Below, piece after piece: positions 1 to 1,299 of a stretch of 1,541 bases of DNA. The stretch lies in the NCBI RefSeq assembly GCF_965641715.1, contig NZ_OZ282461.1; one strand, given 5' to 3'. The DNA comes from Escherichia coli (GTDB lineage: Bacteria > Pseudomonadota > Gammaproteobacteria > Enterobacterales > Enterobacteriaceae). Positions within the stretch are counted from its first letter, which is position 1. The number at the start of each line of letters is the position of its first letter. The notes under the pieces were generated by a model. It was not told where the DNA came from. It saw nothing but the letters and a program-made list of their open reading frames with translations, and did not search any database. The position numbers and the translations under genes were made by a program.

Positions 1-37
1 GTGCTCAATGTGGCTTCCGGTTCTCTTCCGCTTCCTC

Positions 38-80
38 GTCGATTCGCTCGCTACGCTCGGTCATCGACTTGCGGCGAGCG
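38..80. other. Hairpin-rich segment resembling what I recall as the primosome-assembly-site (single-strand initiation) region downstream of the pMB1/ColE1 origin
   Basis: Seen in sequence: cttccgcttcctcg (26-39) and ...cgctcgctacgctcggtcatcgacttgcggcgagcgg... parallel pBR322 cttccgcttcctcgctcactgactcgctgcgctcggtcgttcggctgcggcgagcgg (recalled). Dyads gtcgat (38-43) with atcgac (63-68), and cgctcgc (45-51) with gcgagcg (74-80), are preserved despite substitutions. Function is inference. Confidence 0.4.
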
Positions 81-386
81 GTGTCACCTCTCGCATGTTG
101 TCGGTGATCCCGTTGTTGTTCTTTCGGGGATGAGTCGTCAGATAGCCCTTCAAACACGCTCAGAAGCTCTCAGACGCACGAAACGGGTTTTAGATGCCCG
201 TCAGGGCATGGAAGGCGCGAAAAACGCTTACAGAGGCTCTCAGGAGGTCAGGCGCGCCGATACCCCTAACCAGGGGCTTTCAGGTCGCCAGGAACCGCGC
301 CAGCCCCCTGCAAAGCCCATTTGCACGGTACAGGCAGCCACTCGGTTGGTAGGTGGTCGTAGACCGTCGGTGTTACAGCGATGGGG

Positions 387-440
387 GTCTGGGGTTCTCC
401 CCAGACGGTTTCCGGTTGCGCTCAAGGCGCTGCCGGAACC
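387..440. other. Two tandem stem-loops in the GC-rich non-coding region (perfect 8-bp stem at 387-406; imperfect longer stem at 407-440)
   Basis: Seen in sequence: gtctgggg-ttct-ccccagac, then ggtt-t-ccgg-tt-gcgc-tcaag-gcgc-tg-ccgg-aacc. Whether they function as RNA or as single-stranded DNA structure is unknown. Confidence 0.35.
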
Positions 441-576: not shown

Positions 577-1056
577 TCAATTTGAAAACATGGCCATGAT
601 TCGGCGCTGAATATCACCGTCTTTGTTGACCAGTGTTTTAGTGACAAACGCCGCGTAGTTTTTAGATGTGTTGTATCCCTTCCAGACTTCATGTGGATCC
701 AGTGCATACGCACAAACCTTACCGGCAACAGGAATTCTGACTAACGCGTTTTTTGATTCTAAGTAGTTGAGCCAGCGCTTAATTGTGCTTCGGCTAACAC
801 CCAATTTATCTGCTAAAAACTGCTGATCGGCAACGACAGCACCGCATGAGGGATCTATGTGCTCAGCTAAAAACGAGTAAAGCGGTATTGCTACAACTCC
901 CTGCTTGTCCTTCGACAGTTCTCGGATCCTTTCCCAGCCCTTCTGATAAACCTGGGTGAATGGGCCGTTATTTTTCGGATCTGGTTCCGATTCTTTGTTT
1001 AATTTTTCCAGTTCTTTTAGACGCTTTTTTCGCTGCTCTTCAGTCCCGATATACAT
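577..1056 (-). CDS. Putative plasmid replication initiator or DNA-binding regulator with a helix-turn-helix motif (RepA-like, as in small cryptic enterobacterial plasmids); 159 aa
   Basis: Seen in sequence: ORF from the track, ATG at 1056-1054 and TGA stop at 579-577 on the minus strand. A GGAG Shine-Dalgarno (plus-strand ctcc, 1064-1067) lies 7 nt upstream of the ATG. The segment ...VADQQFLADKLGVSRSTIKRWLNYLESKNALVRI... (approx nt 736-834) has the pattern of a helix-turn-helix. The N-terminus is lysine/glutamate-rich. It is the only long ORF in the AT-richer block and is preceded by a repeat-rich region. Inference: Rep-like function from motif and context; a vague recollection of pKL1-type 1.5-kb plasmids with a small RepA is not verified. 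Confidence 0.75.
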   Translation of the reverse strand: MYIGTEEQRKKRLKELEKLNKESEPDPKNNGPFTQVYQKGWERIRELSKDKQGVVAIPLYSFLAEHIDPSCGAVVADQQFLADKLGVSRSTIKRWLNYLESKNALVRIPVAGKVCAYALDPHEVWKGYNTSKNYAAFVTKTLVNKDGDIQRRIMAMFSN

Positions 1057-1063
1057 GGTAAAT

Positions 1064-1067
1064 CTCC
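1064..1067 (-). promoter_or_regulatory. Shine-Dalgarno (GGAG) for the 577-1056 CDS
   Basis: Seen in sequence: minus-strand reading is ...gaccgtGGAGatttaccATG, with 7 nt between GGAG and the start codon. Confidence 0.6.
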
Positions 1068-1086
1068 ACGGTCTAATAATGGCTCA

Positions 1087-1115
1087 AATATAAGCTATCA
1101 TAGCTCAAACGTAAA
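1087..1115 (-). promoter_or_regulatory. Putative sigma70-type promoter for the HTH gene (-35 TTTACG, 17-bp spacer, -10 TATATT, read on the minus strand)
   Basis: Seen in sequence: minus-strand reading is catggTTTACGtttgagctatgatagctTATATTtgagcc. The -35 hexamer corresponds to plus 1110-1115 and the -10 to plus 1087-1092, about 30 nt upstream of the ATG. Matching to consensus was done by eye; no transcription start data. Confidence 0.35.
1093..1105. promoter_or_regulatory. 13-bp palindrome agctat-c-atagct inside the putative promoter spacer (candidate autorepressor operator)
   Basis: Seen in sequence: perfect dyad agctat/atagct around a central c at 1099. Its position between the putative -35 and -10 is typical of repressor operators (inference). 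Confidence 0.4.
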
Positions 1116-1131
1116 CCATGATAGGTCGACC

Positions 1132-1153
1132 TAGCTCACACATGCGTGAGCTA
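1132..1153. repeat. 22-bp near-perfect palindrome tagctcacacatgcgtgagcta (10 of 11 dyad pairs)
   Basis: Seen in sequence: the reverse complement differs from the forward sequence only at the a/c pair (1140/1145). Overlaps the first direct-repeat copy. Confidence 0.65.
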
Positions 1154-1182
1154 ACCTTAGACCACGCATGCGTGAGCTAACC
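1137..1182. repeat. Two 20-bp direct repeats (cacacatgcgtgagctaacc at 1137-1156 and cacgcatgcgtgagctaacc at 1163-1182), period 26 bp; iteron- or operator-like
   Basis: Seen in sequence: 19 of 20 identity. The second copy contains a perfect 12-bp palindrome, cacgcatgcgtg (1163-1174). Related half-motifs (g)agcta/tagct recur at 1082-1088, 1093-1105 and 1194-1199. Functional role is inference. Confidence 0.65.
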
Positions 1183-1275
1183 CATAATGCAAGTAGCTAA
1201 AAAATCAATAACTTACAAAATCGCCCTTAAATATCTTTTCTGCTGAAAGTGTTGCGCGAAGCGGAACACTTTTTT

Positions 1276-1299
1276 GGGGTGTCGGGGCGAAGCCCTGAC
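1276..1299. repeat. Left arm of a 24-bp inverted repeat (ggggtgtcggggcgaagccctgac); the arm is also an internal hairpin
   Basis: Seen in sequence: the reverse complement of 1504-1527 is ggggtgtcggggtgaagccctgac, matching 23 of 24 positions. Within the arm, gtcggggc and gccctgac are themselves near-complementary. Confidence 0.7.

Follow-up and report, generated by a model that had tools for sequence, protein, structure and literature searches.

A repeat cluster upstream of repA as the probable replication-control region of a pKL1-family miniplasmid of Escherichia coli

The window, the whole 1541-nt stretch of Escherichia coli DNA analysed in this work, is identified by sequence comparison as a complete miniplasmid of the pKL1 / Col(MG828) family, a well-known 1.5-kb kind in E. 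coli. Positions 1073-1180, together with a flank extending to about 1277, probably (at roughly 80%) constitute its cis-acting replication-control region, the sites of which would be bound by RepA, the only protein of the plasmid. The repeat cluster is in itself a known kind of element, and what is new relative to the prototype pKL1 is the operator word and one residue of the RepA recognition helix. Plasmids of the 1.5-kb pKL1 kind are among the smallest autonomous replicons, and assignment of the cluster to RepA binding would explain how a single 159-aa protein both starts and limits replication.

The Col(MG828) type was assigned by proxy, since MOB-suite/PLSDB gives this type both to pKL1 and to the nearest relatives, which match the window at 95.6% identity along the full plasmid. 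On every family feature that can be read from sequence, the window agrees with the pKL1 / Col(MG828) group. At least a partial match to the plasmid was found in 1345 of 5426 complete E. coli genomes (~25%), most of these matches being short oriT-type segments common to other plasmids, with a near-full-length copy present in only 31 of the 5426.

RepA and the repeat cluster upstream of its gene

The repA ORF (577-1056, minus strand) encodes a 159-aa predicted winged-helix initiator and autorepressor and is preceded by a Shine-Dalgarno GGAG (1064-1067, minus strand), read from the sequence 7 nt upstream of the ATG. The AF2 model of RepA is a single winged helix with HTH helices at residues 78-85 and 89-101 and a wing at 106-118. 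Pfam returned generic single HTH families only (HTH_36, E=4e-6), with neither a Rep_3 domain nor an HUH-type or Rep_trans domain found in RepA, an NCBIfam search gave sub-threshold HTH regulators only, and a PDB sequence search with RepA gave no match. Substitutions relative to pKL1 are distributed 13:7:47 over the three codon positions of repA, a third-position bias that indicates purifying selection at the codon level. RepA is the only ORF of the plasmid evolving like a gene and the only credible plasmid-encoded binder of the sites described below.

A dense cluster of palindromes and direct repeats had been noted within 1081-1200 by an earlier, sequence-only reading, and each of these elements is present and exceeds the expectation from shuffled sequence. 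Inside the 17-nt spacer of the putative repA promoter lies a perfect 6+1+6 palindrome of 13 bp (AGCTAT-C-ATAGCT, 1093-1105). TAGCTCACACATGCGTGAGCTA at 1132-1153 is a 22-bp palindrome with one mismatched pair, and the direct repeats 1137-1156 and 1163-1182 are identical at 19 of 20 positions in a 26-bp register, sharing the identical 16-nt core CATGCGTGAGCTAACC (1141-1156 and 1167-1182). A repeat search extends them to units of 25 nt (1132-1156 and 1158-1182, 88%), and the second contains a perfect 12-bp palindrome, CACGCATGCGTG (1163-1174). Two palindromic units emerge, a promoter-proximal unit 1 (1132-1153, TAGCTCA-N8-TGAGCTA) that is proposed as a RepA dimer site, and a distal unit 2 beside the AT-rich tract (1158-1179, TAGACCA-N8-TGAGCTA), the left arm of which is degenerate. 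The shared half-site claimed earlier is borne out, with TAGCTC/GAGCTA occurring at 1101, 1132, 1148 and 1174, all within 1101-1179, and no other copy in the 1541 bases.

The chance expectation was estimated from 2000 dinucleotide-preserving shuffles of 1081-1200. An exact direct repeat of at least 16 nt was never obtained (0/2000), a palindrome of at least 22 bp with at most one mismatched pair arose with P=0.0025, any hexamer present four times (counted with its reverse complement) with P=0.005, and a perfect palindrome of at least 13 bp with P=0.03.

Five window-type plasmids, 4-6% different overall, show three differences in the ~140 nt of the control region. Alignment of homologous plasmids, proposed by the sequence-only reading as a check on the half-sites, finds the half-sites, the 22-bp palindrome (unit 1) and the 26-bp register invariant in all five and, across lineages, finds the half-sites changing with the RepA helix. 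The small perfect palindromes at 1093-1105 and 1163-1174 are peculiar to the window and were created at those three differing positions; the four closest relatives instead carry AGCCATCATAGCT and either CACACATGCGTG or CATGCATGCGTG. A perfect 8-bp palindrome without the half-site word, GGTCGACC (a SalI site, 1124-1131), lies between the operator and unit 1; it is part of a 16-bp near-palindrome (1120-1135) and is likewise invariant in the five plasmids.

The putative repA promoter (1087-1115, minus strand) consists of a -35 TTTACG (1115-1110), a 17-nt spacer and a -10 TATATT (1092-1087). It is the sole promoter-like site on the plasmid and, given that a count of one equals the shuffle expectation, the case for it is made by position and conservation. 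A TTTACN-17-TAT(A/T)TT-like arrangement recurs in three diverged lineages with the same recognition helix (L021, TTTACT-17-TAAATT; L024, TTTACC-17-TATATT; L026, TTTACT-17-TATTTT), and L023 carries a variant -35 (TTTATT-17-TATATT). Overlapping the promoter, the proposed operator (1073-1109, minus strand) comprises two copies 21 bp apart on the rep strand, detected by find_repeats as the pair 1076-1096 / 1097-1117. One copy, TTTGAGCTATGATAGC (1109-1094), is in the promoter spacer and contains the 13-bp palindrome, and the other, TTTGAGCCATTATTAG (1088-1073), covers the end of the -10 and the likely start site. L005, L014 and L026 share this 21-bp arrangement, each with half-sites of its own lineage.

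The sequence-only reading regarded 1081-1200 as AT-rich, as expected for an unwinding element, a description that does not fit the interval. Its GC content is 45% compared with 44.6% for repA and 51.7% for the whole plasmid; the palindrome block 1125-1174 reaches 56% and the promoter part 32-34%. The candidate unwinding element is the adjacent AT-rich tract (1183-1245, about 29% GC; 28-32% over 1175-1249), which lies mostly outside 1081-1200, contains an extra TAGCTA at 1194-1199, and whose position beside the units is conserved across the family. Within it is the single perfect match on the plasmid to the IHF consensus AATCAATAACTTA (WATCAANNNNTTR, 1203-1215, plus strand), for which 0.04 matches are expected. 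An IHF box with at most one mismatch is found at -154 to -197 from the rep start in 15 of 19 lineages, and such a box has been reported for the pKL1 oriV (PMC3832669).

A hairpin (1245-1277, plus strand) stands between the AT-rich tract and the first oriT-like segment, with a stem formed by 1245-1256 and 1262-1273 (AAAGTGTTGCGC / GCGGAACACTTT) that is followed by TTTTTT, and a predicted folding energy of -16.4 kcal/mol (z=-2.4). Read by eye, pKL1 also has a hairpin at this place, in which both arms show A-T to G-C changes. The hairpin could be a plus-strand terminator for a transcript leaving the origin, or a structural element of the origin. A CATAAT at 1183-1188 with a poor -35, also noted by eye, is a possible divergent plus-strand promoter that would feed the hairpin and its T run.

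In the mechanism proposed here, RepA dimers would recognise a half-site of ~7 bp, TAGCTCA, or the weaker variants TAGACCA and TGGCTCA. The origin core would comprise the two units (1132-1153 and 1158-1179), the IHF site and the AT-rich tract; RepA would oligomerise on the units, and bending by IHF would help to open the AT-rich DNA so that host replication proteins could load. RepA bound to the two 21-bp-spaced copies, in the promoter spacer and over the -10 and start, would block RNA polymerase and in this way limit its own synthesis and hence copy number, which would amount to the 'Rep-only' control described for pKL1. Matching of the half-site word to the exposed face of the recognition helix, in particular Lys93, would insulate the plasmid from Ile93/TGTCGCA relatives in the same cell. 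Hexamers of pKL1 RepA, reportedly observed by Burian et al., would fit a bridging of several dimer sites.

Conserved layout and co-variation of the half-site with the recognition helix

The prototype pKL1 (NC_002145, 1549 bp, E. coli; Burian et al. 1999, 2003) is a whole-plasmid homologue with 84-97% DNA identity outside 961-1196. By blastn, window positions 1-416 align with pKL1 at 97%, 419-960 at 86% and 1197-1541 at 84%, with no alignment for 961-1196, the segment that holds RepA residues 1-32, the Shine-Dalgarno, the promoter and all the repeats. That divergence rises toward the control region suggests that the specificity determinants have been the focus of diversifying change or of recombination. 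Upstream of rep, the two plasmids have their elements in the same order (hairpin, IHF-like box in an AT-rich tract, two units, promoter, Shine-Dalgarno), and the distal unit of pKL1 is degenerate in one arm like that of the window, although the window units were matched to the mapped sites of pKL1 by position only. The promoter-proximal unit of pKL1 is a perfect palindrome, TGTCGCATCC-T-GGATGCGACA. Whereas the window has the half-site TAGCTCA, 22-bp units in a 26-bp register and Lys93 in the recognition helix, pKL1 has TGTCGCA, 21-bp units in a 25-bp register and Ile93. The two RepA proteins are 81% identical overall and 89% identical across residues 33-159, with unrelated residues 1-32 (34% identity). 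Given that 13 further differences lie between residues 37 and 133, in addition to the whole N-terminus, residue 93 need not be the sole determinant of specificity.

Published work on pKL1 places its oriV upstream of rep (PMC3832669). A review classes the control of pKL1-type plasmids as 'Rep-only', without iterons, with Rep autoregulating its own gene and excess Rep binding origin elements non-productively (PMC12361487). In the E. coli strain RHB41-C14, a TAGCTC-type plasmid of 1565 bp occurs together with a pKL1-type plasmid of 1552 bp, their half-sites being mutually exclusive; such co-residence is as expected if the words define separate specificities.

The comparison was extended to 19 lineages, 11 from PLSDB and 8 from metagenome/genome contigs and one viral contig; a scan of viral contigs for more lineages yielded one locus only. 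Their RepA proteins are 53-89% identical to that of the window across the C-terminal domain. One layout is found upstream of rep in all 19, namely a hairpin, an IHF box in an AT-rich tract, the units, and a promoter with further half-sites, and two palindromic units of 21-22 bp in a 25- or 26-bp register are common to all at equivalent positions. In the smallest complete members (1184 and 1408 bp), likeness to the window at the DNA level is confined to repA but the layout is kept, with the units, IHF box and AT-rich tract retained upstream of rep. As these members keep just repA and its upstream region, the two together are taken as the conserved replicon core.

The half-site word itself differs between lineages. 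In an 11 x 11 matrix of hexamers in the upstream 170 nt, the top hexamer of a lineage is present in a mean of 4.7 copies in its own sequence versus 0.36 in the others, and the off-diagonal matches are almost all between lineages with similar recognition helices. In each lineage the same word is used in the large palindromes and in promoter-proximal copies, often 21 bp apart. In L021 and L024, symmetry is confined to the outer 7-bp arms and does not extend to the 7-nt centre. Shared use of a word by palindromes and promoter, and symmetry of the arms alone, point to sequence recognition by one protein rather than to a structural hairpin. The suggestion that one dimeric HTH protein serves both operator and origin sites is thus strengthened by the 19-lineage comparison, by the helix co-variation described next and by reviews on pKL1.

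The link between helix and word was put to a prediction test on four lineages that have the helix of the window, SRSTIKRW, at only 69-79% overall identity. Three of them carry TAGCTC/GAGCTA (4, 3 and 7 copies), and the fourth, L023, uses TAGACC, the very word found in the degenerate arm of unit 2 of the window. Lys93 accompanies TAGCTC or TAGACC in 5/5 lineages, compared with 0/14 for Ile, Ser, Arg or Gln, a contrast that overstates significance because the lineages lack phylogenetic independence and the TAGMYC pattern was drawn up with the data already in view. The 14 lineages with another residue 93 contain no TAGCTC/GAGCTA, though they are similarly related to the window (the closest at 83-89%); pKL1 is among them, and no Lys93 lineage comes nearer to the window than its 89% in the C-terminal domain. 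Residue 93 (I, S, K, R or Q) is located in the predicted recognition helix (89-101, AF2 model) and is the most variable of HTH residues 76-119 (2.0 bits), flanked by invariant T91, L99 and E100 and nearly invariant I92, W95 and L96. RepA positions 88-90 and 97 are variable too, a pattern expected of the DNA-facing side of the helix. The length of the units differs by 1 bp among the Lys93 lineages (21/25 versus 22/26), which a rigid dimer would not easily tolerate and which counts against the main reading, as do the use of TAGACC in place of TAGCTC by L023 and the lack of a DnaA box. The N-terminal 32 residues, which diverge from pKL1 together with the repeats, were considered as a specificity cassette and rejected, the users of TAGCTC being only 22-53% identical there.

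A broader proposal, held tentatively and judged somewhat less probable than its negation, is that the pKL1 family represents a natural series of specificity switches in which changes at residue 93 and in the outer 4-5 bp of the half-sites, at origin and operator alike, re-target the initiator. If so, residue-93 switches would create mutually compatible miniplasmids able to stack in one cell, and the window would represent an uncharacterised Lys93/TAGCTCA specificity. The series would then amount to a compact 'recognition code' that can be read for a winged-helix initiator, and would account for the grouping of compatible plasmids under a single Col(MG828) type. Lineage-specific half-sites suggest that the Col(MG828) type comprises several compatibility classes, with a bearing on plasmid typing and minimal vector design. 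This co-variation series is the only part of the analysis that a specialist might want to pursue.

Alternative explanations for the cluster

It is unlikely that the cluster is only the autoregulatory operator of repA, with the origin elsewhere, for example in the conserved GC-rich segment 1-576. In favour of this, segment 1-495 is non-coding by its substitution pattern and 92-97% identical even where RepA is just 53% identical, so that it is either a cis element under strong constraint or a module exchanged recently. Segment 1-576 also resembles the region beside the ColE1/pBR322 origin over its first ~90 nt, positions 15-90 being like the primosome-assembly region of ColE1/pBR322. However, neither 1-576 nor the oriT segments have a homologue in the 1184- and 1408-bp members, which keep the origin-like elements, the literature puts the pKL1 oriV upstream of rep, and the two large units stand upstream of the promoter by the AT-rich tract, where a simple repressor site is not needed. 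A second plasmid protein ('RepB', as claimed for pKST21) or a host factor is very unlikely to be the binder. One RefSeq record (NZ_CP182202.1) does annotate the GC-rich plus-strand ORF as a 'rep protein'. In the window this ORF (1-495, 164 aa, with a GTG start directly after the TAA at 1539-1541) may be the 'second rep gene' claimed for pKST21, but it was rejected as non-coding: substitutions by codon position are 5:12:7 (versus 13:7:47 in repA), 1-2-nt indels among relatives break the frame, the ORF is broken in several members and absent from the smallest, and no NCBIfam family matched it. Words that vary by lineage and follow the RepA helix would be left unexplained by a host factor.

Palindromes can also fold, and the cluster might act through nucleic-acid structure, as cruciforms or RNA hairpins (a terminator, an antisense RNA or a rolling-circle nick-site), rather than as protein words. 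A terminator scan flags 1124-1095 on the minus strand, and the weak RepL similarity of RepA links it to small plasmids of Firmicutes, for which rolling-circle replication is often assumed. The units, however, are located upstream of the repA start site with no T run after them, no Rfam family including RNAI was matched, and RepA has neither of the HUH-type and Rep_trans domains. Furthermore, the word recurs as isolated, non-palindromic promoter copies in every lineage, the arm-only symmetry in L021 and L024 is the signature of a dimer site and not of a stem, and the word co-varies with the recognition helix, leaving a structural origin of the pattern extremely unlikely. Functionless chance clustering has a negligible probability. 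Two-copy short repeats are common and the count of promoter-like sites equals its shuffle expectation, but the shuffle tests, the near-invariance among window-type plasmids and the layout kept in 19 lineages all stand against it, and the conservation data refute it for practical purposes.

Relation to other plasmid systems

The remainder of the plasmid has counterparts in mobilizable plasmids. Of 2402 plasmid records with a partial match, mainly ColE1-like mobilizable plasmids of small size, most share segment 1271-1336 at 91-100% identity. Within this segment, GTATACTGG/CTTA at 1324-1336 is presumably the ColE1 nick sequence. Its counterpart in CP088798.1 is found between rop and mobC/mbeB, the position of bom/oriT in ColE1, and the oriT-like character of this segment explains why MOB-suite calls such relaxase-less plasmids 'mobilizable'. 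A second oriT-like segment in inverse orientation, 1436-1528, is 93.5% identical to DNA just upstream of mobA (nikA-like) and the relaxase gene of an IncK2/Z (MPF_I) conjugative plasmid (L034, 2501-2592), and its minus strand carries CATCCTG/T at 1458-1451 adjoining an inverted repeat (1460-1477 / 1480-1497). Both segments are bracketed by a 24-nt inverted repeat, GGGGTGTCGGGGCGAAGCCCTGAC (1276-1299 / 1504-1527, 96% complementary, 204 nt apart), with one copy in each. With two oriT-like segments of opposite orientation but no gene for a relaxase, the window is like the small oriT-only mobilizable plasmids of the pBuzz kind (Moran and Hall 2019), and two distinct helper systems may be able to mobilize it, as has been described for pBuzz. 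The likeness concerns 1271-1336 and 1436-1528, not the repeat cluster, and pBuzz itself belongs to the rolling-circle plasmids.

Several modes of replication are discounted from the sequence. The window plasmid is not classed as a rolling-circle replicon, because RepA has no HUH domain. Nor is it classed with the ColE1 RNA-primed type, since no RNAI/RNAII control element was matched in Rfam up to E=1, save for a chance proV hit inside repA; what it shares with ColE1-like plasmids is limited to oriT-type segments. No Xer/cer-type resolution site was found on the plasmid with up to 3 mismatches.

The RepL family (PF05732; small Firmicute plasmids and phage P1 RepL) comprises similarly tiny single-gene replicons, compared here by protein alone. 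The link appears weak for the window protein, which matches RepL over residues 59-134 with E=0.014 and a score of 15.4, below the family threshold; relatives at 53% identity to the window RepA carry the PGAP annotation RepL.

There are also parallels with the iteron theta replicons (pSC101 RepA, R6K pi, RK2 TrfA and F RepE; Rep_3), but the window differs from these. Its initiator is a 159-aa single winged helix without a Rep_3 domain, it has two palindromic units in place of three or more tandem direct iterons of 17-22 bp, and it has no DnaA box (TTWTNCACA, none on the whole plasmid with up to 1 mismatch, against 2.3 expected by chance). For these reasons the plasmid is not classed, from its sequence features, as an iteron/Rep_3 replicon, and the term 'iterons' used in the sequence-only reading does not strictly apply, with only two units, each itself palindromic. 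In common with the iteron theta replicons, the window has an initiator gene beside its own proposed sites, a promoter inverted repeat that would serve autorepression, and putative initiator sites that flank an AT-rich tract with an IHF site.
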